DNA from: an uncultured Actinomycetes bacterium
Lineage (GTDB): Bacteria > Actinomycetota > Thermoleophilia > UBA2241
Assembly (NCBI GenBank): GCA_963709345.1
Contig: CAVPVX010000010.1
Span: 32,001 to 96,000 of the forward strand
DNA: 64,000 bases
Direction of reading: 5' to 3'
Made by a program: the position numbers and the translations under genes. This document shows positions 24,872-61,331 of this stretch, piece by piece (the stretch's first letter is position 1; every line of letters begins with the position of its first letter). Below the pieces are notes generated by a model. The model had not been told where the DNA came from. It did no database searches and saw only the letters and a list, made by a program, of their open reading frames with translations.

Positions 24872-26326
24872 ATGAACGACCTGCCCACCTCTGTGCTGAA
24901 CAGCCGTCTGACGCTCCTCTCGGAGGAGAAGTGCCAGATGATCTACGACGCCGCCCTCACGATCATCGCCGACATCGGCATGACCGTGCCGCACGCCGAA
25001 GCACGCGAGATGCTCGTGAAGGGCGCGGGAGCCACCGTCGAGGGCGACGACCTCGTCAGGATCCCGCGTGAGGCCGTGGACAGGGCGCGCGAGACCGTGC
25101 CGTCCATGATCCCGGTCTACGACCGGGGCGGCGAGCTCGCGATGCAGCTCGGCGGCCACAACTCGTACTTCGGCACGGGCTCGGACCTCATGAGCATCTA
25201 CGACTTCGAGACTCGCGAGCGCCGCCAGAGCGTGCTCGCCGACACGGCGCGCATGGCGCACCTGTGCGACGGCCTCCCCAACATCGACTTCATCATGTCG
25301 GCCGCTCACCCGCACGACATCGACGCGTACGCCTCCTACCTCGAGTGCTACCGCGCCATGGTGAGCAACACGACCAAGCCGATGGTCATGACCGCCGCCG
25401 GCAAGGACGACATCGAGGTCATGTGGAGGATCGCCTGCGAGTTCCGCGGCGGCGCGGAGGAGCTGCGCGAGAAGCCATACTTCATCCAGTACGGCGAGCC
25501 CGTCAGCCCGCTGCAGCACGCGCCAGAGGTCCTGGACAAGCTGCTCTTCTGCGCCGACTGGGGCATCCCGCTGATCTACTCCCCGGCGCCGATCGCCGGC
25601 GCCACGGCGCCGATCACCCACGCCGGCCACATCGTTCAGGCAGTCGCCGAGTCGCTCTTCGGCGTCGTCATCCACCAGCTGCGCCGTCCCGGCTCGCCGC
25701 TGCTCACCGGCATGGGCCCGGTCAAGCTCGACATGAACACCGTGCAGGCTCTCTACAACTCGGCCGAGTACTACACGACGTATCTCGGCATCACCGAGAT
25801 GGCCAAGTGGATGGATATCCCCAACTGGGGCTACGCCGGCACCAGCGACTCGCAGTGTGTCGACGCCAACGCCGGCATCGACATCACCGAGCTCACCTTG
25901 CTCTCCATGCAGGCCGGCTCCAACCTCAACCACGACATCGGCTACCTCGACTTCGGTCTCACCGGCGCCGGCGAGCTCGTCGTGCTCACGGACGAGGTCA
26001 TCTCGATGAACCGGCGCGCGCTCGAGGGCATCGAGGTCACCGAGGAGACGCTGGCGCTCGACGCCATCGCCGCGGTGGGTCAGGGCGGCGACTTCCTCGG
26101 CCAGAAGCACACCAAGCGGCACGTGCGCCAGCTGCAGTGGCGGCCGACCGTCCTCAATCGCAGCACCCGGAAGAACTGGGAGGCCGAAGGCTCGCTCGAC
26201 GCCACCGAGAAGGCGCATCGCAAGCTCGTGGACATCATGACCAACCACAAGCCCGAACCGCTTGGCGCCGAGATGAAGGCCAAGGTCGACGCGATGGTCG
26301 ACGCCTTCGTAGCGGCCGGCAAGTGA
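24872..26326 (+). CDS. Non-pyrrolysine trimethylamine methyltransferase (MttB superfamily)
   Basis: PVSPL, AGATAPIT.AG, PNWGYAG-T-SDS..D..AG, GQGGDFLGQKHT; Thr at the Pyl-equivalent position. Confidence 0.9.
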   Translation: MNDLPTSVLNSRLTLLSEEKCQMIYDAALTIIADIGMTVPHAEAREMLVKGAGATVEGDDLVRIPREAVDRARETVPSMIPVYDRGGELAMQLGGHNSYFGTGSDLMSIYDFETRERRQSVLADTARMAHLCDGLPNIDFIMSAAHPHDIDAYASYLECYRAMVSNTTKPMVMTAAGKDDIEVMWRIACEFRGGAEELREKPYFIQYGEPVSPLQHAPEVLDKLLFCADWGIPLIYSPAPIAGATAPITHAGHIVQAVAESLFGVVIHQLRRPGSPLLTGMGPVKLDMNTVQALYNSAEYYTTYLGITEMAKWMDIPNWGYAGTSDSQCVDANAGIDITELTLLSMQAGSNLNHDIGYLDFGLTGAGELVVLTDEVISMNRRALEGIEVTEETLALDAIAAVGQGGDFLGQKHTKRHVRQLQWRPTVLNRSTRKNWEAEGSLDATEKAHRKLVDIMTNHKPEPLGAEMKAKVDAMVDAFVAAGK

Positions 26327-26381: not shown

Positions 26382-27032
26382 GTGTCCGAAGAGCTCTACG
26401 CACAGATGAAGCAGACCGTGATCGACGGCGAGGCCGAGGACGCCGAGCGGCTCGCCCAGGAGGGCCTCGACGCCGGCCTGCCCGCCGCCGACATCCTCGA
26501 CCAGGGCTTCGTCAAGGGCATCGAGGAGGTCGGCGACCTCTTCGGCCGCGGCGAGTTCTTCCTCCCCGAGCTCGTCCAGGGCGCCGAGGCGATGAAGGCC
26601 GCCGTGGCCGTCCTGCAGCCCGCCCTCGACGCCTCCGGTGGCGGCCGTAAGGCGCTCGGCAAGGCCGTCGCCGGCACCGTCGCCGGCGACATCCACGAGA
26701 TCGGCAAGACGATCGTCTGTTCCATGCTCTCCGCCGCCGGCTTCACCGTCACCGACGTCGGCTGCGACGTACCGGTCGAGGACTTCGTTGCCGCGGTCAA
26801 GGACTCCGGCGCCGACCTGCTCCTGCTCTCCGCCCTGCTGACCACGACGATGCCCAACCAGCAGAAGACGATCGAGGCGCTCAAGGAGGCCGGCCTGCGG
26901 GACTCGGTCAAGGTGATGATCGGCGGCGCCCCGACGACCCGCGCCTGGGCCGACGAGATCGGCGCCGACGGCTACGCCGAGGACGCGATCGAGGCCGTGG
27001 CCACCGCCAAGACGATCCTCGGGGTCGGCTGA
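26382..27032 (+). CDS. Corrinoid (B12-binding) methyl-carrier protein, MttC/MtbC-like
   Basis: GEFFLPEL, GDIHEIGK (DxHxxG), SALLTTTM, VMIGGAP, GADGYAEDA. Confidence 0.93.
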   Translation: MSEELYAQMKQTVIDGEAEDAERLAQEGLDAGLPAADILDQGFVKGIEEVGDLFGRGEFFLPELVQGAEAMKAAVAVLQPALDASGGGRKALGKAVAGTVAGDIHEIGKTIVCSMLSAAGFTVTDVGCDVPVEDFVAAVKDSGADLLLLSALLTTTMPNQQKTIEALKEAGLRDSVKVMIGGAPTTRAWADEIGADGYAEDAIEAVATAKTILGVG

Positions 27033-49995: not shown

Positions 49996-50916
49996 TCACT
50001 CAGGCTCCAGCTCGTCCGGGAAGCCGGGGGCGCGCAGGTCGGTGCCGACAGCCTCCTCGAGCATCTTGACCACCATGGGGGACTGCGCGCCGCCGCCGTA
50101 CACGGCGCGGGCGCGGGCGAAGATCTGCTCGGTGAGCCCCGCGAGCTCTAGAGGCACGCCGAACTCGCGGCCCATCTGGTGCGCGAAGTACAGGTCCTTG
50201 CGCGCCAGGTCCATCGTGAAGTTGATGTTGTAGCTGCCGTTCAGGATGAGCTGGCCCTCGGTCTCGTGCACGAAGCTGTTGCCCGAGCTGGCCTTGATGA
50301 CGTCCCAGGCCAGCTTGAGATCGACGCCGCCGCGCTTGGCCAGCATCAGCGCTTCGCCGTCGGCGACGAGATGGATGAAGGCCAGCATGTTGGTGATCAC
50401 CTTGATCACCGAGGCCTGGCCCAGCTCGCCGATGTAGAAGACCCTGCCCCCCATGGTCTCGAACACGGGCAGGTGCTTCTGGAATACCGCCTCGTCGCCG
50501 CCGACGAGGACGGTGATCATGCCGCAGGCAGCGCGGTGGACGCCGCCGGTCACCGGCGATTCGAGCGTCGCGATCCCCTTCTCCGCGGCCAGGGCGGCGA
50601 GACGCTGCAGTTCGTGCAGGTCATTGGTGCTCATGTCGATCCAGGTACCACCGGGGGCGAGGTTCTCGATGACGCCGCCCTCGCCGGCGACCACGTCGGT
50701 GACGACCTCCGGCGAGGGCAGACAGGTGATGACGGTGTCCGACGCGCGCGCCGTCTCCGCGACGGTGTCGGCGCAGGTTGCGCCCGCTTTGCCCAGGTCG
50801 ACGGCGCAACTCGCGTCAACGTCGTACACGGTGACCGGGAAGCCGTCGCGCAGCAGGCAGCCGGCGAGTTGCCGGCCGAGGGCTCCGAGCCCGATGTAGC
50901 CGATCCTCATGGTCAT
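49996..50916 (-). CDS. Beta-hydroxyacid dehydrogenase family NAD(P)-dependent oxidoreductase
   Basis: IGLGALG, DMST, ESPVTGG, IKVITNML (catalytic Lys), KDL. Confidence 0.88.
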   Translation of the reverse strand: MTMRIGYIGLGALGRQLAGCLLRDGFPVTVYDVDASCAVDLGKAGATCADTVAETARASDTVITCLPSPEVVTDVVAGEGGVIENLAPGGTWIDMSTNDLHELQRLAALAAEKGIATLESPVTGGVHRAACGMITVLVGGDEAVFQKHLPVFETMGGRVFYIGELGQASVIKVITNMLAFIHLVADGEALMLAKRGGVDLKLAWDVIKASSGNSFVHETEGQLILNGSYNINFTMDLARKDLYFAHQMGREFGVPLELAGLTEQIFARARAVYGGGAQSPMVVKMLEEAVGTDLRAPGFPDELEPE

Positions 50917-50961
50917 GCTGCCTCCGATGGCCGGTGTGGAAGTGCTGTGGAGTCCGTTCGG

Positions 50962-52413
50962 CTAGCCGCGCCGCGCGTGAGCGACGGCCTCGCCGTCCAC
51001 GCGGCACGCGGTCGCCAGCGCGTCCAGCCGGTCACTGCCGAGGTAGGGCTCGCTCGTGGCGCGCTCGGACAGGATGAGGTCGATCTTCTCGCACGCCGTG
51101 TCGAGCTCCGTCGTGCCTTCCTCGATCCATCTGTCGTAGGACAGCCGGTTCGAGACGGACGGCAGGTAGTGCTCGCCGGCGCGGATGCGCCGCGCCGTGT
51201 CCTTCTGGCCGAGGAAGCTCCCGCCCGGGCCGGCCGTGGCGATGGAGTCGCCCGCCAGCGTGGCCGGGGAGACCTCCACCGGGGCCATGAGACGCCGCAC
51301 CATGGCCGCGATCTCGTTGTCGATCACCGACTGCGGCAGGTACATGGTGTTGTGCGAGTCGATGAGGCCCCAGCCCGAGACGATGTCGGGGCCGGCGCTG
51401 CAGACGGTCGCCGTCTTCAGCGCCTTCTCGTAGCCGTTCTGGATCCCCGCGTGCTTGGCGTCGGTCGACAACCCGGGATTAAGCGTGGGGACGCCGAGGT
51501 AGTGCCCCACCTCGGTGGCCATGACGCCCATCAGGGCGCTCTCGACACATCCCAAGGAGAAGGTGGTGCGCAGCATGTCGAGCACGCCTGAACCGAAGCA
51601 GAAGACGAGTCTGGCTCCGGGCGCCGCGACCTGCAGCGCCGTGGCGATGCCGAGGAACTCGGCGAGACCCTGGGCGACGGTGCCCGCCAGCGTCACCGGC
51701 GACGTGGCGCCGGCGATCGTCATCGAGTACACCTCGATCGGTACGCCGTGGCCGGCCAGAGCGATGTGGATGTCGAGCGCCGCGCCGTCCACCTGGAGCG
51801 GCGAGGCGGCGGTGACGACGGTGGAGATGCGCGGGCGCTGCCGGAACCGCTCCAGGTCGCCGCCGAGCACCTTGCAGATCTCAAGGACCGCGTCGACCTC
51901 GTGCGGGCAGTCGACGAAGGTCACGTGCTTCCTGGTCTCGGTGAGCAGCGTGAAGTACTCGGTGAGCTCGCGCTGCTCCAGCGGGACGTCCGACGCGCTC
52001 ACCTGCGTCCACATGAGGTCGAGCTCTGAGAGCTCGTCGAGCACGGCGGTGGACTCGCGCACGTCCTGCAGCGTGCTGGCCCGGCGCATCCCTGTGCGGT
52101 GGTCCAGGGTCTTGGCGACGCAGCCGCTGGGCGCGAAGTGGAAGGGCTCGTGCTCACCGAGGACCACGTCGTCGGCCTCGGTGAGGCCGGCCATGAGGAC
52201 GGTGCGCGGGCACTGCCCGAGGGCCCACTCCACGAGCTCCCGGGGCAGGCGCGCGAGGCCTGTGGCCTCGTCCACGCGCGCGCCGCGCTCCTCGAGCCGG
52301 GGGAGTACGCGCGAGCCGTAGAAGCGCATGCCCACGTTGGCGAGAAGGTCCATCGCCTGGTCGGCGATGAGGCTCTTCTCGCCGTCGCTGAGCCGACTCG
52401 TGTTCGCCGTCAT
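50962..52413 (-). CDS. Non-pyrrolysine MttB-superfamily methyltransferase
   Basis: ASPLQ.D, AGATSPVTLAG, PTLNPGL-S-TDAK...Q.GYE, GPGGSFL; ends in TAG. Confidence 0.88.
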   Translation of the reverse strand: MTANTSRLSDGEKSLIADQAMDLLANVGMRFYGSRVLPRLEERGARVDEATGLARLPRELVEWALGQCPRTVLMAGLTEADDVVLGEHEPFHFAPSGCVAKTLDHRTGMRRASTLQDVRESTAVLDELSELDLMWTQVSASDVPLEQRELTEYFTLLTETRKHVTFVDCPHEVDAVLEICKVLGGDLERFRQRPRISTVVTAASPLQVDGAALDIHIALAGHGVPIEVYSMTIAGATSPVTLAGTVAQGLAEFLGIATALQVAAPGARLVFCFGSGVLDMLRTTFSLGCVESALMGVMATEVGHYLGVPTLNPGLSTDAKHAGIQNGYEKALKTATVCSAGPDIVSGWGLIDSHNTMYLPQSVIDNEIAAMVRRLMAPVEVSPATLAGDSIATAGPGGSFLGQKDTARRIRAGEHYLPSVSNRLSYDRWIEEGTTELDTACEKIDLILSERATSEPYLGSDRLDALATACRVDGEAVAHARRG

Positions 52414-52660
52414 CTCCGTTCACTCCTCTGGCCGAGACCTCTCGCCCAGTCGCGACCCGCGGCGGGCGTACTCCTGGCGCCGTTTCCAGCGGTCACCGCA
52501 GCACAATGGCACGCCGCTGGGGCACTGTCAACACGGGGCTTGCAGATGCGAGGCCCAACGGCCGTGAGGTGTTGCGTCTGAACGCGAAAGAGCCATAATG
52601 CATTGTGAATGTTGGCAGAGTGGCTGGAAACCTTCTCATACTGCTACGAAAGGGCAGGAG

Positions 52661-53227
52661 ATGATCAGAGCGGGGCAGGCGCCGTTCGGGTCGACCGAGA
52701 TGGACGACCTCGATCGTCGCATCATGAAGCTGCTCCGCCCCAATGCACGCCGCTCGTACGCCAGCATCGCGCGCGCCGTCGGGGTATCGGAGCCGACGGT
52801 CCGCAATCGCGTCGACCGCCTCATCAAGAGGGGCGCGATCCTCCCCATGGCCAGGGTCAACCCGGCAGCCATCGGCCTCCCTGTCGATGCCATGGTCGGC
52901 ATCCGCGTGAACCGTGGTTACGCGAAGGCGGTCGGGGCGCATCTCGCGGCCATGGAGAACGTCTCGTACGTCGGCTACACGACCGGTTCGTTCGACATCC
53001 TCATCGAGGCGCACCTGCCGGACAACGAGGGCCTCTACTCGTTCCTGAACGAGGATCTCGATCGGATCGAGGGCATAGCTCACACTGAGACCTGGCACAT
53101 TCTGCGCGCCGACAAGGTCAACTTCGAGTGGGACGGCGAGAACGTCGGCAGGGAGCCCCTCGCCGACGATGAGCCGGAGGCCGCGCCCGCCGATCCTTCG
53201 GCGGCGGCCGGGGAGGTCGCATCGTGA
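52661..53227 (+). CDS. Lrp/AsnC-family transcriptional regulator
   Basis: DDLDRRI...L..NAR.SY..IA..VGVSE.TV..RV, TTGSFDI; AGGAG RBS. Confidence 0.9.
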   Translation: MIRAGQAPFGSTEMDDLDRRIMKLLRPNARRSYASIARAVGVSEPTVRNRVDRLIKRGAILPMARVNPAAIGLPVDAMVGIRVNRGYAKAVGAHLAAMENVSYVGYTTGSFDILIEAHLPDNEGLYSFLNEDLDRIEGIAHTETWHILRADKVNFEWDGENVGREPLADDEPEAAPADPSAAAGEVAS

Positions 53228-54168
53228 GGGTGGGCTGCGTCGGCCTCGGTCACATCGGCCGTCACCTCGCGAGCAGCCTGGTACGCGCCGGCCACGGCGT
53301 CACCGTCCACGACCTGGATCCGGCGGCGGCTCAGGGCCTCGTCGAGGCCGGCGCCTCGTGGGCAGACTCGCCGGCCGCCGTAGCGCGCGCGTCCGAGTCG
53401 GTGATCACCTGCCTGCCCTCCATCGCCGCCGTCACGGAGGTCGTCGCCGGCGCCGGCGGCCTCGCCAGCGGATTCGCGCCCGGCGGCACGTGGATCGAGA
53501 TGAGCACCAACAGCCCGCACGAACTGGCGCGACTGGCGGCGCTTCTCGCCGAGAAGGGCGTCTCCACACTGGAGGCGCCGGTCACGGGCGGCGTCCACAA
53601 TGCCGAATCGGCCACCATCACCGTGCTCGTAGGTGGCGATGAGGACGTCTTCGCGAGACACGAGGACGTCTTCGCGGCGGTCGGAGGCAGGACCATTTAT
53701 GTCGGCGCCCTCGGCAAGGCCTCGAGCATCAAGGTCATCACGAACATGCTGGCCTTCATCCACATCGCCGCGTCCGCGGAGGCGTTCATGCTGGCCAAGC
53801 GCAGCGGCATCGACCTGCGTCTGGCCTGGGAGATCATCCGCGCCAGCTCGGGTTCCAGCTTCATCCTCGAGACGGAGAGCACGACCATCCTCGGCGGGAG
53901 CTACGACGTCGGCTTCTCCTTCGATCTCTGCCTCAAGGACATGGGCCTGGCGCTGGCGCTGGGCCGCGAGCTCGACGTGCCGCTCGACATCGCCGGCACC
54001 GTCGAGCAGTTGTTCGTGCGCGGTCGCGCCCGCTACGGAGGCGGCGCCGAGTACGCCATGGTCGCCAAGCTGCTCGAGGAGGCCTGCGGCACCGACCTGC
54101 GGGCGCCCGGCTTTCCGACCACGCTCAAGGAGTATCTGGCCACGATGCCGCGCGCCGAGGGCGCTTGA
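53224..54168 (+). CDS. Beta-hydroxyacid dehydrogenase family oxidoreductase (paralogue of 49996-50916)
   Basis: VGLGHIG, EMSTN, EAPVTGG, IKVITNMLAFIH, GTDLRAPGFP. Confidence 0.88.
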   Translation: MRVGCVGLGHIGRHLASSLVRAGHGVTVHDLDPAAAQGLVEAGASWADSPAAVARASESVITCLPSIAAVTEVVAGAGGLASGFAPGGTWIEMSTNSPHELARLAALLAEKGVSTLEAPVTGGVHNAESATITVLVGGDEDVFARHEDVFAAVGGRTIYVGALGKASSIKVITNMLAFIHIAASAEAFMLAKRSGIDLRLAWEIIRASSGSSFILETESTTILGGSYDVGFSFDLCLKDMGLALALGRELDVPLDIAGTVEQLFVRGRARYGGGAEYAMVAKLLEEACGTDLRAPGFPTTLKEYLATMPRAEGA

Positions 54169-54219
54169 CATCCTTGGCCGCGGGTTGTGTAGTGAGGGAT
54201 TAATTGACCGGTCAGTTAG
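54165..54219 (+). promoter_or_regulatory. mtbB promoter (TTGACA-17-TGTAGT) with operator TTAATTGACCGGTCAGTTAG (54200-54219)
   Basis: 18/20 to the palindrome; operator starts 35 nt after TTGACA, exactly as at 30650/30685. Confidence 0.82.
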
Positions 54220-54256
54220 CACGCCGAGAGTGTTCGGCGAGATGAGGAGGGACAGC

Positions 54257-55645
54257 GTGACGAACGAGGTCCGGGTGCCGACCCGCATGGGCGACGGCAC
54301 CTTCACGCGCATGACGCGCGACGAGATGCGTGCAGATCTCGAGGCGGGGTCGGAGGCGGCGGCCAAGAGAGCCAAGGTGCCGCCGCTCGAGCAGGACGAG
54401 ATCGATCACCTTCTGGACATTTACGCCTCGCCGGCGCGCTTCACCGGCGTTGACGTCGGCGATGAGATCGTCCTGAGCTGCGACGGCACCGGCATGAAGA
54501 CCCATGCCACCCGCATCCAGGATCTGCAGTCGTACGAGCAGTGGATGGGCGCCGACCTGCTGGAACTCTGCGTCGGCGACTACTCGCTCAAGGTCGTGCG
54601 CACCATCCTCGCCTACGAGGCCCAGTACATGCACGACGCGCAGCTGTGCACGATCGCGCCGCTGCAGTACGGCGTGATGCCCAACCTGGGCCTCTACTCC
54701 AAGCCGGACGGGCCCTGCGACAACTGGAACGAGCTGCTCCCGCTCGGCAAGATCGCCGAGGCGCGGGCGGCCGAAGAAGAAGCGGTCGAGATGGCCGTCG
54801 TCGACATGGTCAAGCTCGCCGACTCGCAGTGGGAGGCGGGCGCCGACGCGATCGACTGGGACACCACCGGCGCCTCCGGCGACCCGGAGTTCCTCGCTGC
54901 GCTCAGGGCGACGAAGATCATCCGCGAGAAGCACCCCGACATGGGCGTGCAGCTGGGCATGGCCGGCGAGTTCGTGCTCGGCATGCACGGCGAGCTCGAG
55001 TGGGGCGGCAAGCGTCTCGCCGGCCTGTGGCCCAAGGACCAGCTGCTGCTGGCCCAGGAGGCCGGCGCGACGATGTTCGGGCCGGTGGTCAACGTCAACA
55101 CCGGCAAGTCGCTGGTGTGGAACATCGCTCGTGCCATCGCGCTCATCAAGCCGTGCATGGAGGTCGCTGAGATCCCGGTGCACCCCAACGCCGGGATGGG
55201 CGTCGGCGCCGTGCCGATGTTCGTGCACCCGCTTGCCGACGCCGTCTGCCGCTCGGCCAAGTCGTTCGTCGACCTGCTGCACGTCGACGGGTTGTAGGTG
55301 GGTTCGGGCGATCCCCACGGGATGCACAACGCCCACGCGCAAGCCGCGAGCATCGGCGGTATACGAGCAGCCGGAGACCTGGTGGCTCGGATGCAGATGA
55401 CTCGGGGCATGCGCCTCAAAGAAGCAAAGCAGTACGTCGCCGACAAGCTCGGCGTCACGCCGTTCGACCTCTCCGACCCGGCCGTCATGACCGACATCCG
55501 TGCGGAGCTGGGCTTCGGCGGCATCCACAGCTACGCGATCAGCCAGCCGTACCTGGCCAACCAGATCGAGGCGAAGTTCAACATCGCTCGCGCGCTCGAC
55601 GTTCCCATCAACTGCGTAGAGCGCTTCAAGGAGCGCACCGCCTGA
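54257..55645 (+). CDS. mtbB: Dimethylamine:corrinoid methyltransferase, pyrrolysine-containing (in-frame TAG 55295-55297, codon 347 of 462)
   Basis: RMGDG, DYS.K, YG.MPNLGLY..PDGP, DTTGA.GD, GMAGE.VLGMHG, LAGLWP, GMGVG.VPM, VDGL-TAG-VG.GDP, GIRAAGDLVARM, EAK.YVA.KLGV; same frame on both sides of TAG; GAGGAGG RBS. Confidence 0.93.
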
Positions 55646-55661
55646 GGAGGTGGGGCAGACC

Positions 55662-56291
55662 ATGAACGACCAGCTCAAGCAGGCCATCATCGCCGGCGAC
55701 GCCGGCGTGGCCACCGCGCTCACCACGGCGCTCCTCGCCACCGGGGCCACGGCGCGGGAGATCCTCGACTCCGCCCTGCTCCCCGGCATGGAGGTCGTCG
55801 GCACGCGCATGCGTGACGGCGAGTGCTTCATCCCCGAGGTGCTGCTCTCCGCCCGCGTCATGCAGGCCTGCCTCGACCTGTTGCGCCCGCACATGGCCGC
55901 CGGCGACGAGGCCGGCGGCGGCGTGGTCGTGATCGGCACCGTCGAGGGCGACCTGCACGACATCGGCAAGAACCTCGTCGGCATGCTCCTGCAGGGGGCC
56001 GGCTTCACGGTCGTCAACCTCGGCACCGGGGTGACGGCGGCCGACTTCGTCGCCGCCGTCAAGGAGCACGCGCCGAAGATCATCGGCATGAGCGCCCTGC
56101 TCACGACCACCCTGCCGCACATGGCCGAGACGATCGCCGCGCTCAAGGCCGAGGGCCTGCGCGACTCCGTCAAGGTGATGGTCGGCGGCGCCCCGGTGAC
56201 CGCCGCCTACGCCGACGAGATCGGCGCCGACGGCTACGGCGCCAACGCCGGCATGGCGGTGGAGCGGGCGAAGGAGCTGGTGACGGGCTGA
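55662..56291 (+). CDS. Methylamine corrinoid protein (MtbC/MttC-like)
   Basis: FIPEVL, GDLHDIGKN (DxHxxG), SALLTTT, VMVGGAP, IGADGY. Confidence 0.93.
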   Translation: MNDQLKQAIIAGDAGVATALTTALLATGATAREILDSALLPGMEVVGTRMRDGECFIPEVLLSARVMQACLDLLRPHMAAGDEAGGGVVVIGTVEGDLHDIGKNLVGMLLQGAGFTVVNLGTGVTAADFVAAVKEHAPKIIGMSALLTTTLPHMAETIAALKAEGLRDSVKVMVGGAPVTAAYADEIGADGYGANAGMAVERAKELVTG

Positions 56292-56442
56292 CGGGAAGCG
56301 GGCGGCCGCGACGTCGCCTGCCGAGGAGGGTTGCCGGCCGGCGAGACAGTGACCGCCCGCGGAGCCGGCCGGCAACCGTTCTCGAAGCCACACGGACCGT
56401 CGACGGACGACCGGCGGTCAGGAGAGTGCAAGGGAGGTCGAG

Positions 56443-57912
56443 ATGAGACGCAATCCGCGCGCGGGAGCGCGCAAGAGTGGCGGCTTCAGGCTCGAGGTGT
56501 TCACCGACGAAGAGCTGCGCGAGATCCACCTCTCGACGCTCGAGGTGCTCTCGCGCACGGGCGTCTTCGTCGAGGATGACGAAGCGCTCGACATCTTCGA
56601 GAGGGCCGGCGCCGACGTCGACCGCGAGAAGAGCGTGGTGCGTCTTCCGGGTCACCTCGTCGACGACGCGATCCGCTCGGCGCCCTCGACGGTGGTCATG
56701 TGCGGCCGCGACCCGTCCAGGGACGTGGTGCTCGAGGACGGCCGCGTCGGATTCACCAACTTCGGCGAGGGCATCCAGGTCGTCGACCCGTACACCGGTG
56801 AGCTCCACGAGAGCCGCAAGCAGGACGTTGCCGACTGCACGAGGATCATCGATGCCCTGCCCGAGATCGACGTCGTGGAGCGGCCGCTCGGCGCCCACGA
56901 CGTGCCGCCGGACACAGCGTCGCTGCATAACGCCGAGGCGATCTTCAGCAACACCACGAAGCACGCCACCATCGGTCCCCTCTCGGGCTTCTGCGCCCGC
57001 AAGATGATCGACATGGCGGCGACGATCGTCGGGGGGCGGGACCAGCTGCGCCGCCGCCCGATCCTCTCGTTCCTCACCTGCCCGGTCAGCCCGCTCAAGC
57101 TGGTGAAGGACGCGTGCGAGATCATCATCGAGGGTGCCCGCGCCGGTATCCCGGTCAACGTCCTCTCCATGGCGATGGCCGGCGGTTCGTCGCCGGTCAG
57201 CCTGGCCGGCACGCTGGTCACGCACAACGCCGAGGTGCTCGCCGGCATCACGCTCGCGCAGCTCACTGAACGCGGAACGCCGGTGATCTACGGATCGTCG
57301 ACGACCGCCATGGACCTGCGCTTCGCCAGCGCCTCGGTGGGCAGCCCCGAGTGCGCGATGATCGGCGCCGGTGTGGCCTGCCTCGCCCGCTTCTACCTGC
57401 TGCCCAGCTGGGTGGCTGGTGCGTAGGGCGACTCCAAAGTGGCGGACGCCCAATCCGGCCATGAGAAGACGATCACCAGCCTGCTGCCGGCGTTGGCAGG
57501 GGCCAACCTGATCTACGGGCTGGGGATGCTGGAATCGGGCGTCACCATCGATTACGCGCAACTCGTCATGGACGCGGAGTTCGCGCGCATGGTCAAGTAC
57601 TGCGTGCCGGGGATCCCGGTCACCGACGAGACGCTGTCGGTGGACGTGATCGCCGAGGTAGGGCCGTTCCGCGACTTTCTCTCGCACGACGACACCTACA
57701 AAGGCATGCGCGGGCAGTCGCAGTCGAAGTTCATCGACCGGAAGGTCCGCGAGGAGTGGGCCGCTGCCGGGTCGACGACGATCTACGACCGCTCGCTGGC
57801 CGAGGCCCGGCGGATCCTCGAGACGCACACGCCGGATCCACTGCCGGACGAGGTCGCCGTGGAGCTCAGGTCGATCATCGTTGCTGCGGAGGCTGAGCTC
57901 GGCGTCAAGTGA
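56443..57912 (+). CDS. mttB: Trimethylamine:corrinoid methyltransferase, pyrrolysine-containing (in-frame TAG 57424-57426, codon 328 of 489)
   Basis: TNFG, CP.SPL, SMAMAGGSSPV.LAGTLVTHNAEVL, YGSSTT..DL, VGSPE, PSWVAGA-TAG-GDSKV.DAQ.GHEKT, GANLIYG.GMLE; GGAGG RBS. Confidence 0.94.
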
Positions 57913-58009: not shown

Positions 58010-58202
58010 TCGCCGCGACCGCACCCGGACGTCTGGGCACACGCGATGATGTTCCCGAGGTAGCCCCGAGCCTTCCCGCTGGGGTACTGGCGTCGGCGAC
58101 GGTTACCTCCGGCACGCTCTCAAGATGCCCTCCCCCGGGTGACGACTCTCGCGCTTCGGCGCCATAGGCTTCGGGCGATGAATGGAGTCGACAGGAGGGA
58201 TC

Positions 58203-59708
58203 ATGGAACGCTCTGCTTTCACGGCCGGGAGACTGAAGCGGCTCGCGGCCGGAGCTGTGGCGGTCGGAGGGGCCGCCGTGGTGACCGGACTGATCATGCC
58301 GCGCGGGCCCGTGACCACGCTCGACGCGATCGTGACTCTCGCGGCGGGACTCGGGATCGGCCTCGTTGCCGGCTACGCGTGGCGCTCCCGCTGGGCGCTG
58401 CTCGCCTCGCCCGCGCTGTTCGCCCTGGTCTACGAGCTCGTGCGGCTTGGCGAGAGCGGCCCGACCGTCGACCGGATCACCCTGGCCTCCACCTACGGCA
58501 TCGTCGCCTTCGTGAGCGGGCGAGGCGTCCACGGCGCTTTCCTGCTGCTGCCGATGGTCCTCGGCAGCGGCGTCGGCGTGGCTGTTGCGCGCCGAGCGGC
58601 GGCTCCGGCGGCGCGTCCGCTCGGCGTGGGCGGCGTGGCGCGGCGCGTGGCCGTCGCCGCCGCCGCAGCAGCGCTTCTGGCGCTGACGGCTGGCCTCGCC
58701 GTGCCGGCCCGCACCGAGCCGATCCGTGACGTTGCCGGGGCCGTCGTCCCCGGCAGCATCGCCGAGCTCACCGCCATCGACGTCAACGGGACGGAGCAGG
58801 CGCTCATGGTCCGCGGCCGTCGCCAGGATGCGCCGGTACTCCTCTACTTGGCCGGTGGCCCCGGCGGCAGCGAGATCGGGTCCATGCGCAAGCTGAGCGA
58901 GAGCCTCGAGGAGCACTTCGTGGTCGCGACGTGGGACCAGCCGGGGTCGGGCAAATCCCTGTCGAGCTATCGCGACGACATGACGCTTGACGACATGGTC
59001 GACGATACGCTCGCCGTCACGGGCTACCTCCGCGAGCGCTTCGGTCGGCAGAAGGTCTACCTCGCCGGCAATTCGTGGGGGACCATCCTCGGCGTGCTCG
59101 CCGTTCAGAAGCGCCCCGAGTTCTATCACGCCTACGTCGGCACCGGGCAGATGGTCGATCCGGTCGCGACGGACCGGATGTTCTACGCGGACACCCTGGC
59201 GTGGGCCGAGCGGACCGGGCAGCGCAACCTCGTGGCGACGCTTCGCGAGAACGGTGAACCACCGTACGACGAACTCTGGAAGTACGAGCCGGCGCTCGCG
59301 CACGAGCACGACTGGAACCCGTACGCGATGGCGCCCGGGTTCCAGGAGAAGGGCGAGATGCCGGGCAACATCTTCGTCGCCGAGTACACGCTGCTCGAGA
59401 AGCTGCGGCTCATGGGCGGGTTCCTCGACACGTTCTCGGTGCTGTACCCGCAGCTTGCGGCCGCCGGCATCGACTTCCGGACGGCGGTCCCGACGCTGGA
59501 GGTGCCTGTCTACCTGGTCCAGGGCGCGCACGAGGCGCGAGGCCGGGCCGGGCTGGCTCGGGAGTGGTTCGAGCAGCTAGACGCGCCGAGCAAGCGCCTC
59601 ATCGTGTTCGAGCGTTCGGGCCACAAGCCGTCGTTCGAAGAACCTGCGCGCTTCACGGCGGTGATGACCGGCCTCGTCCTCGGTGGCGCGCACGCCGTGC
59701 GGCGCTGA
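58203..59708 (+). CDS. Membrane-anchored alpha/beta hydrolase (proline iminopeptidase-like domain)
   Basis: N-terminal hydrophobic helices; AGGPG, WDQ.G.GKS, GNSWG nucleophile elbow, SGH. Confidence 0.85.
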   Translation: MERSAFTAGRLKRLAAGAVAVGGAAVVTGLIMPRGPVTTLDAIVTLAAGLGIGLVAGYAWRSRWALLASPALFALVYELVRLGESGPTVDRITLASTYGIVAFVSGRGVHGAFLLLPMVLGSGVGVAVARRAAAPAARPLGVGGVARRVAVAAAAAALLALTAGLAVPARTEPIRDVAGAVVPGSIAELTAIDVNGTEQALMVRGRRQDAPVLLYLAGGPGGSEIGSMRKLSESLEEHFVVATWDQPGSGKSLSSYRDDMTLDDMVDDTLAVTGYLRERFGRQKVYLAGNSWGTILGVLAVQKRPEFYHAYVGTGQMVDPVATDRMFYADTLAWAERTGQRNLVATLRENGEPPYDELWKYEPALAHEHDWNPYAMAPGFQEKGEMPGNIFVAEYTLLEKLRLMGGFLDTFSVLYPQLAAAGIDFRTAVPTLEVPVYLVQGAHEARGRAGLAREWFEQLDAPSKRLIVFERSGHKPSFEEPARFTAVMTGLVLGGAHAVRR

Positions 59709-59891
59709 CGTCTTGCCGGCGAGGGGCACGAAAGCGCCAGAGGCGCACGCCCCTCGCCGAACTTAAGTCGATACGAACTGCTGTGAAGAGCAAGATCGAC
59801 GTGCACTGGTCCTTGGAGCGGTGTAGTGTTCTGTGGAGCGCCTGCCGGTCTCGGCGAGCGCGTCGCCTAGAAACGCCGTCCAGGAGTGACG

Positions 59892-61331
59892 ATGCCAGAT
59901 AGCAGCATGGAGATCGGCGCCGGCCGGGTGAGCTTCCTCACCGAGGAGCAGAAGCAGCGCATCTACGAGGCCGCGCTTGGGATCCTGTCCGAGATCGGCA
60001 TGGTGGTGCTTCACGAGGAGGGTGAGGCCGTCATGCTCGCCGGCGACTGTGTCAAGGACGACGCCGGCCTCATCCACGTGTCCGCTGAGCTCGTAGAGCA
60101 GGCGCGCTCCACGGTCCCGGCCAGCTTCATGGTCTACGACCGCGCCGGCGAGCCGGCGATGGATCTGGGCGGCCGGCGCGCGTACTTTGGGAACGGTTCG
60201 GACGTGATGCATCTGCTTGACCTCGAGACTGGCGAGCGCCGCCTGGGCAAGCTCGAGGACGTCGGCGAGGCGGCGCGCCTCTGCGACGCCCTGCCCGAGA
60301 TCGACTTCGTCATGTCGGGCGCCTACCCCGACGGCATGGTCGCCGAGGAGGCGTACCCCAAGCAGTTCCGCGCCATGATCGAGGCGACGACCAAGCCACT
60401 CGTCATGACGGCCGGGGGCGTCGAGACCGTCGAGCCCATGTGGCGCATGGCCTGCGAGGTCCGCGGCGGCGCCGACGCGCTGCGCGACAAGCCGTACTTC
60501 GTCATGTACAACCAGCCCGTCAGCCCTCTCAAGCACCCCTTCGAGACCGTCGAGAAGCTGCTGTTCTGCGCCGACAAGGGCATCCCGTCCACGTACTGCC
60601 CGTCGCCGGTGGCCGGAGGGACCGCCCCCATCACCACCGCCGGCCAGATCACACTTGGCATCGCCGAGGCGCTCTTCGGCCTGGTCATGCACCAACTCCG
60701 TGTGCCCGGGGCCCCGTTCGTCATCGGCCAGGGCCCCAACACGCTCGACATGGCGACCTCTCAGTCGGCCTACAACTCGCCCGAGTTCATCCGCGCGTAC
60801 GCGTGCGAGGTCGAGATGGCCAAGTGGCTCGACCTGCCCAACTGGGGCTTCAGCGGTCACACCGACGCGCAGGTGGTGGACGCTCAGGCCGGCATGGAGG
60901 CCGACGAGATCACCAAGCTCTCCATGCAGCTCGGCGCCAACCTCAACCACGACGTCGGCTACATGGACTTCGGGCTCTCCGGGTCGCTCGCCGAGGTCGT
61001 CCTGGTCGCCGAATTCATCTCGCGCAACCGGCAGTTGCTCGAGGAGATCGAGGTCAGCGACGAGACGCTGGCCGTGGACGTGCTCAAGGCGGTCGGCCCC
61101 GGCGGCGACTTCCTCGGCCAGCGGCACACGCGGCGCCACCTGCGCAGCACCCAGTGGCGCGGGAAGCTGCTCAATCGCGCCAGCTACGACCGCTGGGCGG
61201 CGAACGGTGCCACGGACGCCACGGAGAAGGCGCGTTTGCGGGCGCTCGAGCTACTGGCAACGCACGAGGTGCCGGCGCTGCCGGACGGCCTCTGCGCACG
61301 GCTCGACGCAGTCATGGGCGGTCTCTCATGA
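59892..61331 (+). CDS. Non-pyrrolysine MttB-superfamily methyltransferase (close paralogue of 24872-26326)
   Basis: PVSPL.H, AGGTAPIT.AG, PNWGFSG-H-TDAQ.VDAQAG, GPGGDFLGQRHT; AGGAG RBS. Confidence 0.9.
   Translation: MPDSSMEIGAGRVSFLTEEQKQRIYEAALGILSEIGMVVLHEEGEAVMLAGDCVKDDAGLIHVSAELVEQARSTVPASFMVYDRAGEPAMDLGGRRAYFGNGSDVMHLLDLETGERRLGKLEDVGEAARLCDALPEIDFVMSGAYPDGMVAEEAYPKQFRAMIEATTKPLVMTAGGVETVEPMWRMACEVRGGADALRDKPYFVMYNQPVSPLKHPFETVEKLLFCADKGIPSTYCPSPVAGGTAPITTAGQITLGIAEALFGLVMHQLRVPGAPFVIGQGPNTLDMATSQSAYNSPEFIRAYACEVEMAKWLDLPNWGFSGHTDAQVVDAQAGMEADEITKLSMQLGANLNHDVGYMDFGLSGSLAEVVLVAEFISRNRQLLEEIEVSDETLAVDVLKAVGPGGDFLGQRHTRRHLRSTQWRGKLLNRASYDRWAANGATDATEKARLRALELLATHEVPALPDGLCARLDAVMGGLS

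Follow-up and report, generated by a model that had tools for sequence, protein, structure and literature searches.

The 64,000-nucleotide stretch of DNA analysed here, referred to as the window, appears to carry a working operon for pyrrolysine-dependent methylamine demethylation in an uncultured member of the Thermoleophilia, a reading of the sequence to which we give a probability of roughly 0.88. The host is an uncultured, high-GC soil member of this class of Actinomycetota, with a genome of 3.1 Mb, 69% GC and 98.06% completeness. The initial annotation had called it probably an actinomycete; it is an actinobacterium, but of the class Thermoleophilia and not an actinomycete proper. As first described, the genes mtbB and mttB each contain one in-frame TAG and flank a gene for a corrinoid protein with a DxHxxG motif. 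The locus is laid out as follows.

50962..52413, minus strand: non-Pyl MttB-superfamily gene, without internal stop, divergent (PF06253 226 bits; TIGR02369 314 bits, below the cut-off of 525)
52598..53227, plus strand: AsnC/Lrp-family transcription regulator, first gene of the row (PF13404 and PF01037; AsnC/Lrp models below their cut-offs)
53224..54168, plus strand: HIBADH/tartronate-semialdehyde-reductase-like NAD(P) dehydrogenase (PF03446 and PF14833)
54257..55645, plus strand: mtbB, Pyl-type dimethylamine:corrinoid methyltransferase family, 462 codons (TIGR02368, PF09505)
55295..55297, plus strand: in-frame TAG of mtbB, codon 347, predicted to be read as pyrrolysine
55650..56291, plus strand: corrinoid (B12-binding) methyl carrier protein with DxHxxG (PF02310, PF02607)
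56443..57912, plus strand: mttB, Pyl-type trimethylamine:corrinoid methyltransferase by family, 489 codons (TIGR02369, PDB 7XCM/7XCL)
57424..57426, plus strand: in-frame TAG of mttB, codon 328, predicted to be read as pyrrolysine
58182-59708: alpha/beta hydrolase gene, between mttB and the downstream non-Pyl MttB-superfamily gene
59886..61331, plus strand: non-Pyl MttB-superfamily gene (PF06253 255.7 bits; TIGR02369 315 bits, below the cut-off of 525)

The start of the dehydrogenase gene (53224) overlaps the stop codon of the AsnC/Lrp-family gene which, judged from its position only, may regulate the mtbB-mttB operon. The non-Pyl gene at 50962..52413 lies outside this operon; after it, on the other strand, is a paralogue of the HIBADH-like gene (49996-50961).

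Under translation table 11 the two methyltransferase genes yield four ORFs (53633-55297, 55298-55645, 56443-57426 and 57439-57912), the four fragments that standard annotation had been expected to show. Reading TAG as sense gives one MtbB of 462 residues and one MttB of 489 residues, and the family profile of each matches as one unbroken stretch across its TAG. MttB scored 740.2 bits against TIGR02369 (cut-off 525), covering profile positions 1-469 of 469, and 402 bits over residues 3-483 against PDB 7XCM/7XCL. The solved MttB structures available for comparison were 7XCL, which we take to be the M. barkeri enzyme, 7XCM and 7XCN. Codon 328 aligned to X334 of 7XCL_A, and to K in 7XCM_A, which places the TAG at the Pyl334 site as had been proposed. 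By family, MttB is assigned as a Pyl-type trimethylamine:corrinoid methyltransferase. MtbB scored 539.9 bits against PF09505 (cut-off 25) and 398.7 bits against TIGR02368, where the cut-off of 369.1 leaves a narrow margin of about 30 bits. In an alignment of 14 MtbB sequences, which included two archaeal copies (Ca. Hecatella), two Bacillota copies (Sporomusa ovata and Paradesulfitobacterium) and no Methanosarcina sequence, the TAG occupied a single column in 14/14, from bacteria and an archaeon alike, within the motif D-G-[LYI]-X-[VI]-G. In the two Ca. Hecatella copies the TAG is codon 354 and codon 356, respectively, aligned to the TAG column of the window MtbB.

If these TAGs were true stops, leaving pseudogenes or truncated proteins only, or if they were assembly errors, the four table 11 fragments would be the expected annotation. 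TAG is moreover a common stop in this genome, and no public run contained the assembly's own sequence reads (best share of words 0.23). We nevertheless find this reading hardly credible. The same genome encodes 10 full-length MtbB and 8 aligned Pyl-type MttB proteins, all with TAG, and the TAG falls in one column in 10/10 and in one column in 8/8; since this holds for all 18 paralogues despite their 48-63% identity to the window copies, chance placement is excluded. MtbB was found in 38/40 family genomes of at least 90% completeness, and among the matches listed (150 MtbB matches from 38 genomes) each had exactly one TAG. The two genus members without MtbB were also without PylSc. Orthologues from 11 genomes of the genus, at 89-95% identity for mtbB, kept the TAG in 11/11 mtbB and 6/6 mttB genes. 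Their dN/dS was well below 1 after the TAG (0.03-0.19 for mtbB, 0.18-0.30 for mttB), with values before it of 0.10-0.19 and 0.12-0.19, respectively; the codons 3' of both TAGs are under purifying selection, a constraint at the protein level. The genome also holds a full set of pyl genes.

Among public runs, two of DNA and two of RNA libraries gave contigs that matched at 85% likeness, and these represented pieces of relatives only. One RNA-library contig (X15, record 16; 57387-57548; 3 differences) spans the mttB TAG. Its library origin is no proof of transcription, and it is uninformative on translation because a transcript crossing UAG says nothing on decoding.

The initial annotation had proposed that UAG is read as pyrrolysine and had suggested a search for pylT, pylSn/pylSc and pylBCD; all were found in the same genome, with every protein gene above its equivalog cut-off. 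PylSc scored 318.2 bits (cut-off 178.15) and PylSn 122.5 bits (NCBIfam cut-off 51.15), while a Pfam scan of the PylSn ORF gave no match. The genes pylB (426.7 bits, cut-off 348), pylC (279.7 bits, cut-off 248) and pylD (about 212-213 bits, cut-off 150) stand in a row on contig C11, directly followed by a tRNA-Pyl with anticodon CUA that ARAGORN called at L005:8992-9064, 52 bases 3' of pylD and 3.3 kb from pylSc. The predicted fold is a cloverleaf of -38.6 kcal/mol whose anticodon stem is long and whose variable loop is short, features that are among the hallmarks of tRNA-Pyl.

A plain amber suppressor, by which UAG would be read through as an amino acid other than pyrrolysine, would be compatible with the fact that ARAGORN alone called the CUA tRNA, since scanning the pyl locus with Rfam (E<=1) yielded no tRNA at the pylT position. 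The odd, tRNA-Pyl-like shape of this tRNA, its place beside pylBCD and pylSc and the five pyl protein genes make such a suppressor highly unlikely, as does the presence of the same tRNA beside pylS in 21/24 related Thermoleophilia-type loci. The gene set and the conservation of the sites indicate instead that UAG in mtbB and mttB is decoded as pyrrolysine. TAG is not depleted as a stop, ending 359/1715 confident ORFs (20.9%), and back-up stops close by are not enriched. Because it terminates about a fifth of ordinary genes as well, UAG is a codon of two meanings here. In other Pyl-using bacteria read-through is limited by the timing of pyl gene expression, and by analogy the same probably applies in this organism.

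The protein encoded between mtbB and mttB matched PF02310 (B12-binding, 96.8 bits) and PF02607 (B12-binding_2, 69.1 bits), and its translation contains the DxHxxG cobalt-ligand motif as D-L-H-D-I-G. Its nearest models all scored below their cut-offs, with 184.1 against 215.3 for TIGR02370, 192.5 against 350 for MtbC (NF041607) and 226.9 against 370 for MtgC. By its domains, the product of 55650-56291 is classed as a corrinoid carrier of the broad methylamine-type group, not assignable to one substrate. Its gene is absent from the operon in 7/11 orthologous loci, where mttB directly follows mtbB, which weakens the earlier suggestion that MtbB and MttB share this single corrinoid protein.

From the families of the two enzymes, MttB would demethylate trimethylamine, with a Co(I) corrinoid protein as the methyl acceptor, and MtbB would treat the resulting dimethylamine in the same way. 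The carrier could be the product of the gene between them or another of the many carriers in the genome. Oxidised cobalt would be re-reduced by a RamA/AcsV-like activase, for which the candidate gene reached 408 bits where the AcsV model requires 800. A MeTr-like pterin-binding methyltransferase (C3:92995-93939; 214 bits, below the cut-off of 259) or an MtaA/CmuA-like one (C7:223701-224693; below its curated cut-off) may then pass the methyl group onward; tetrahydrofolate is the most likely acceptor, and the methyl group would then be oxidised or assimilated. The genome also encodes MTHFR, which carries little weight because it occurs in 11/14 control genomes.

A search for acetyl-CoA synthase (CdhC/AcsB) with one Pfam model (PF03598), which matched in 2 archaeal control genomes, gave 0 matches in this 98.06%-complete genome. 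Candidates for a Pyl-type MtmB were also rejected: the two MtmB-family genes lack an internal stop and have Ile or Gln at the Pyl202 position of 1L2Q/1TV2. Since neither Pyl-type MtmB nor acetyl-CoA synthase was found, monomethylamine is the likely end product and acetogenesis is unlikely. Of the two fates first proposed for the methyl groups, tetrahydrofolate remains plausible and acetogenesis is not supported, for want of a CdhC match with that one model.

The number of Pyl genes raises the question of substrate. There are at least 18 TAG-containing Pyl genes in the 3.1 Mb genome, and at five places, in genome coordinates, an MtbB gene lies within about 2 kb of a gene for Pyl-type MttB. The Thermoleophilia sequences fall into two clades of the MtbB tree, one neighbouring archaeal MtbB and the other neighbouring Bacillota MtbB. 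The window MtbB belongs to a lineage-specific clade of eight of its own paralogues, supported at 100/100, with a branch length of 0.45-0.5 changes per site, and sister to Bacillota MtbB. Paralogues of MtbB can be matched one to one between genera, in groups conserved over two or three of them, and the window copy groups with those of two other genomes (G128_L124 and G196_L133) at 100/100. Because MtbB is only just over the equivalog cut-off and sits in a divergent, long-branched clade, dimethylamine is a less certain substrate for it than trimethylamine is for MttB.

The Pyl enzymes could be real and yet the window MtbB, perhaps with its partner MttB, could act on a methylated amine other than dimethylamine or trimethylamine, the old paralogues being substrate specialists and not spare copies. 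The paired genes, the conserved one-to-one groups, the long branch, the narrow score margin and the merely 48-62% identity of the ten MtbB paralogues to the window copy would all fit such specialists. Both enzymes are nonetheless over the curated equivalog cut-offs for dimethylamine and trimethylamine, and the window MtbB shares the residues surrounding its Pyl site with MtbB of archaea and Bacillota. A PDB search with MtbB returned 0 matches, so that the family offers no solved structure in which substrate-binding residues could be compared. Methanosarcina, moreover, carries multiple near-redundant mtbB and mttB copies. We regard a different substrate as unlikely, though a serious alternative, and prefer the assignment to dimethylamine and trimethylamine. 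In its broader form, in which the old radiation of Pyl-type MtbB and MttB would be a toolkit for secondary and tertiary N-methyl amines beyond these two, the idea is equally tentative.

We also screened the genome for other Pyl proteins as coding-like ORF pairs joined in frame by a TAG, with at least 80 codons on each side, a design that is blind to Pyl near protein ends. This gave 43 pairs, of which 12 were MtbB or MttB. Two pairs inside the window were separate genes. The remaining 29 had no Pfam domain across the TAG; for 7 of these (L073, L078, L080, L084, L085, L089 and L093) a domain lay on one side or there was none, and the Pfam test was uninformative.

PylSc was present in 73/79 sampled genomes of the host family. 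Its nearest relatives outside the lineage were from Bacillota and Desulfobulbus, at 47-56% identity, and a palsa MAG from Stordalen Mire was among the PylSc relatives (L032, 67% identity). Novelty for the lineage, which the initial annotation had left for a search to confirm, does not hold, as the Pyl trait in Thermoleophilia has had earlier brief mentions. The supplement of the survey by Guo et al. 2022 (PMC9630628) lists two actinobacterial PylSc (PylRS) entries, one of them a 'Thermoleophilia_bacterium' of the same class as our host and, by eye, clearly in the same PylSc clade. Its table gives PylSn for neither actinobacterium, whereas PylSn is present in the genome studied here. A peatland study by Ellenbogen et al. 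2023 (PMC10805028) states that Actinobacteriota MAGs from Stordalen Mire, of the same phylum as the host, express Pyl-encoding mttB and mtbB. The single sentence in the latter and the single table row in the former are silent on how the operon is built, how many copies there are, how far the trait extends through the family, which paralogue groups exist and what route follows downstream. In our literature search we found no published account of how widely the trait occurs in the family, of how large the expansion is or of MtbB paralogue groups shared between genera.

Similar to the Methanosarcina system of MttB/MttC, MtbB/MtbC and pylTSBCD, the present one combines the same two enzyme families with full Pyl machinery, Pyl at the same MttB site, a DxHxxG corrinoid carrier and a RamA-type activase. 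In contrast to Methanosarcina, the host is a bacterium whose PylRS is divided between pylSn and pylSc, a search of its genome for Pyl-type MtmB found none, and the operon has one corrinoid gene where most orthologous loci have none. There is also no methanogenesis here, so the methyl acceptor would not be coenzyme M.

Pyl-using Bacillota and Desulfobacterota include Desulfitobacterium, Acetohalobium, Sporomusa and Bilophila. Like the present organism, these groups have split PylSn and PylSc, retain UAG as a common stop and confine Pyl to methylamine methyltransferases. Our host differs in being an actinobacterium with 69% GC in which no acetyl-CoA synthase was found, and in gene number, with 10 MtbB and 8 MttB compared with one MtbB match each in Sporomusa ovata and Paradesulfitobacterium.

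The result points to a whole family of uncultured Thermoleophilia with Pyl machinery and an unusually large set of Pyl enzymes. Because standard gene callers split every Pyl gene in two, methylamine metabolism is under-counted in MAG surveys. Methylamines feed methane production, and non-methanogenic bacterial consumers shift the carbon balance of peatlands, soils and sediments. The conserved paralogue groups offer a concrete set of enzymes with which to ask whether pyrrolysine enzymes can act on substrates other than the three classical methylamines. If the broad-toolkit interpretation were true, it would represent the first case in which Pyl enzymes have widened their substrate range, and these abundant actinobacteria of soil, peat and wetland would be major rivals of methylotrophic methanogens for methylamines.

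The window carries a real, well-supported pyrrolysine (Pyl)-dependent mtbB-corrinoid-mttB operon of a Thermoleophilia genome. Under the standard code the region splits into four ORFs, with breaks at 55297/55298 and 57426/57439; with each TAG read through, two full-length methyltransferase genes flank a corrinoid protein gene.

Genes of the operon (window coordinates)
54257-55645, mtbB, dimethylamine (DMA):corrinoid methyltransferase, 462 residues, TAG at codon 347
55650-56291, corrinoid protein gene between mtbB and mttB, two B12-binding domains and a D-L-H-D-I-G motif
56443-57912, mttB, trimethylamine (TMA):corrinoid methyltransferase, 489 residues, TAG at codon 328

In profile searches MtbB matched NCBIfam TIGR02368 at 398.7 bits (cut-off 369.1) and Pfam PF09505 at 539.9 bits, and MttB matched NCBIfam TIGR02369 at 740.2 bits (cut-off 525). 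Because each match runs across the TAG as one unbroken stretch and the middle gene has the B12-binding domains and motif, the initial annotation was right in describing this gene order with one in-frame TAG per enzyme gene. For the corrinoid protein the best specific models were MtgC, MtbC and TIGR02370, each scoring under its cut-off.

We compared the TAG positions with known Pyl sites. MttB aligned over residues 3-483 with solved trimethylamine methyltransferase chains (7XCM_A, 402 bits; 7XCL_A, 399 bits), and its codon 328 pairs with X at position 334 of 7XCL_A, in agreement with the earlier assignment to Pyl334. A structure search with the window MtbB found no solved relative, and its site was therefore judged by sequence comparison. 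Within the genome, the TAG occupies a single alignment column in 10/10 full-length MtbB and in 8/8 aligned Pyl-type MttB sequences, the paralogues being 48-62% and 55-63% identical to the window copies, respectively. The MtbB column, within D-G-[LYI]-X-[VI]-G, is common to all 14 sequences when the ten are joined by MtbB of Sporomusa ovata and Paradesulfitobacterium and by two archaeal copies, both of Ca. Hecatella, in which the TAG is codon 354 and codon 356, respectively. These alignments omit an 80-residue TAG-bearing MttB fragment (C8:12436-12675), a short N-terminal stretch of MtbB where contig C1 ends, and a disrupted MtbB copy (C11:176097-177473) that lies in four pieces in different frames. 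A Pyl-type MttB at C1:451230-452655 is split in two, and an intact state is thus not universal among the Pyl-gene copies of this genome.

Orthologues of the window MtbB, 76-95% identical, are spread across the genus, with one TAG in each site-reaching match among the matches listed. The TAG of mtbB was kept in 11/11 fetched orthologues (89-95% identity), with dN/dS of 0.03-0.19 after the TAG (111 codons) and 0.10-0.19 before it; that of mttB was kept in 6/6, with 0.18-0.30 after and 0.12-0.19 before. Since such low dN/dS is not expected of pseudogenes or untranslated tails, the segment 3' of the TAG is very probably translated.

The initial annotation called for a genome search for pyl genes. 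The 3.11-Mb assembly (11 contigs, rated 98.06% complete), in which the window occupies C10:32001-96000, holds them all on contig C11, every pyl protein scoring above its cut-off.

The pyl cluster of contig C11, in gene order (L005, fetched locus)
pylB, 426.7 bits (cut-off 348.2)
pylC, 279.7 bits (cut-off 248.3)
L005:8134-8940, pylD, 213.2 bits (cut-off 150.05)
tRNA with anticodon CUA, 73 bases, 52 bases 3' of pylD
GerM-type lipoprotein gene, opposite strand, between the CUA tRNA and pylSn
pylSn, 122.5 bits (cut-off 51.15)
L005:10520-11398, minus strand, radical-SAM gene, PF04055 at 54 bits, without an NCBIfam match
second corrinoid protein gene, between the radical-SAM gene and pylSc
L005:12403-13260, pylSc, 318.2 bits (cut-off 178.15)

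The CUA tRNA folds into a cloverleaf whose acceptor and D stems are separated by a single base; its D loop has five bases, its anticodon stem is long and its variable region has two bases, in agreement with the hallmarks of tRNA-Pyl. A CUA tRNA adjoins pylSc at 21/24 related Thermoleophilia-type loci and at 5/5 comparison loci (Bacillota, Desulfobulbus, Ca. Hecatella). UAG is dual-use in this genome, since 20.9% of the confident ORFs (359 of 1715) also have TAG as their stop; nearby back-up stops were not enriched after the terminal TAG of these ORFs. Within the limits of an ORF-pair screen, no TAG-spanning genes were found in the genome beyond MtbB and MttB. Both pylD and pylSc terminate in TAG; under active Pyl decoding these stops could be read through, and the pylD frame would then extend across pylT.

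Orthologous loci show the corrinoid gene (window 55638-56442) to be an optional insert. It is missing, with mttB directly 3' of mtbB after a gap of about 12-40 bases, at 7/11 orthologous loci (L107, L108, L110, L112, L113, L115 and L117) and present at 3/11; at locus L116 neither mttB nor the corrinoid gene was found at >70% identity. Contigs of relatives in public runs join 55638 to 56442 or 56455, the same corrinoid-less form. Because seven loci lack the gene, the single shared corrinoid protein proposed earlier is not established, and the methyl carrier may be encoded elsewhere in the genome. MttB-family matches number 64 in the genome, with a TAG in only nine, the majority being non-Pyl.

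Non-Pyl MttB-family genes in the window
24872-26326
28438-about 29830
50962-52413
59886-61331

Their neighbours are another corrinoid gene of the window, at 26382-27032, and two genes each of the ornithine-cyclodeaminase/mu-crystallin and HIBADH-like dehydrogenase types.

We also searched the genome for the remainder of the pathway. Two genes of the family of MtmB, the monomethylamine (MMA):corrinoid methyltransferase, lack an internal stop and carry Ile or Gln at the Pyl202 position of solved MtmB.

MtmB-family genes
C2:391900-393261 (L008:1483-2865), minus strand, Ile at the Pyl202 site, in G-L-P-I-I-N-G
C7:776285-777439 (L007:1486-2661), plus strand, clipped by the contig end, Gln at the Pyl202 site

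The motif of the second, A-G-R-P-G-M-P-V-Q, closely resembles the Pyl motif apart from the Gln. The first adjoins a corrinoid gene and is flanked by MtbB and a non-Pyl MttB-family gene. The candidate for corrinoid activation is one RamA/AcsV-like activase, which scores 408 bits to AcsV where the cut-off is 800. Candidates for methyl transfer are one MeTr-like pterin-binding methyltransferase, at 214 bits under a cut-off of 259, and a protein resembling MtaA/CmuA; a stronger Pterin_bind match was a plain dihydropteroate synthase and a stronger URO-D match was HemE. MTHFR is present, as it is in 11/14 control genomes, and no match to CdhC/ACS was found in the 98.06% complete genome. Because the MtmB homologues are non-Pyl, CdhC/ACS gave no match and the activase and methyltransferase candidates are present, a route is supported in which TMA would be demethylated to DMA and then MMA, the methyl groups passing to corrinoid and then probably to tetrahydrofolate. 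Of the proposal that sequential TMA and DMA demethylation feeds tetrahydrofolate or acetogenesis, the first fate thus stands as probable, but acetogenesis is not supported. The genome also holds NrfH-like, cytochrome c552 (NrfA-like) and complex I subunit genes (C7:473316-474494, L092; C4:327271-329604 and 337504-340626), which hint at nitrite ammonification or other respiration as electron sink for methyl oxidation.

Pyl use in this lineage is already known, and the novelty left open by the initial annotation falls away, since two studies precede ours. Guo et al. 2022 (PMC9630628) include 'two Actinobacteria' in their count of 81 bacterial genomes with PylRS and tabulate a 'Thermoleophilia_bacterium' PylSc with a blank PylSn entry; Ellenbogen et al. 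2023 (PMC10805028) report expression of Pyl-encoding mttB and mtbB by Actinobacteriota MAGs and rank the genus RBG-16-64-13, assigned to Thermoleophilia in their tables, with the most active methylotrophs. In the literature searched we found neither the family-wide spread, copy numbers and conserved orthogroups of the Pyl enzymes nor the variable corrinoid gene, non-Pyl MtmB homologues and missing ACS.

With the PylSc of this genome as query, 185,579 species genomes gave 57 loci. Of the 32 at 67-88% identity, 30 are titled Thermoleophilia (26), Actinomycetota (3) or Actinomycetes (1), and one MAG each is titled 'Deltaproteobacteria' and 'Zixibacteria'. Bacillota make up most of the 25 at 47-56%, where Ca. 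Hecatella and two Desulfobulbus also occur. Across 401 genomes of the class, PylSc was found in 73/79 genomes of the window's family, 9/61 of one other family and 0/260 of ten further families. MtbB occurs in 38/40 family genomes of at least 90% completeness, at 1-12 matches per genome, with exactly one TAG in each of the 150 matches listed. The two genomes lacking it, G002 and G014, belong to the window's genus and are 98% complete at 1.7-1.8 Mb; they also lack PylSc, which looks like joint loss of the Pyl trait along with genome reduction.

An MtbB tree was built from 34 sequences: ten from this genome, 9/11 matches of relative G128, 7/8 of G196 and 4/8 of G151, picked by availability of listed coordinates, and four from outside. 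Two Thermoleophilia clades resulted, one adjoining archaeal copies and the other (19 sequences, on a branch of 0.5) adjoining Bacillota copies. Within both, the paralogues fall into one-to-one groups that span genomes and genera and have 100/100 support; the window MtbB groups with G128_L124 and G196_L133, and another group covers three genera. Because of these one-to-one groups across genera, the MtbB duplications are old and the copies have been maintained apart, a pattern that fits distinct roles without proving them. A possible but less likely reading is that the old paralogue groups are substrate specialists, which would raise the interest of the locus.
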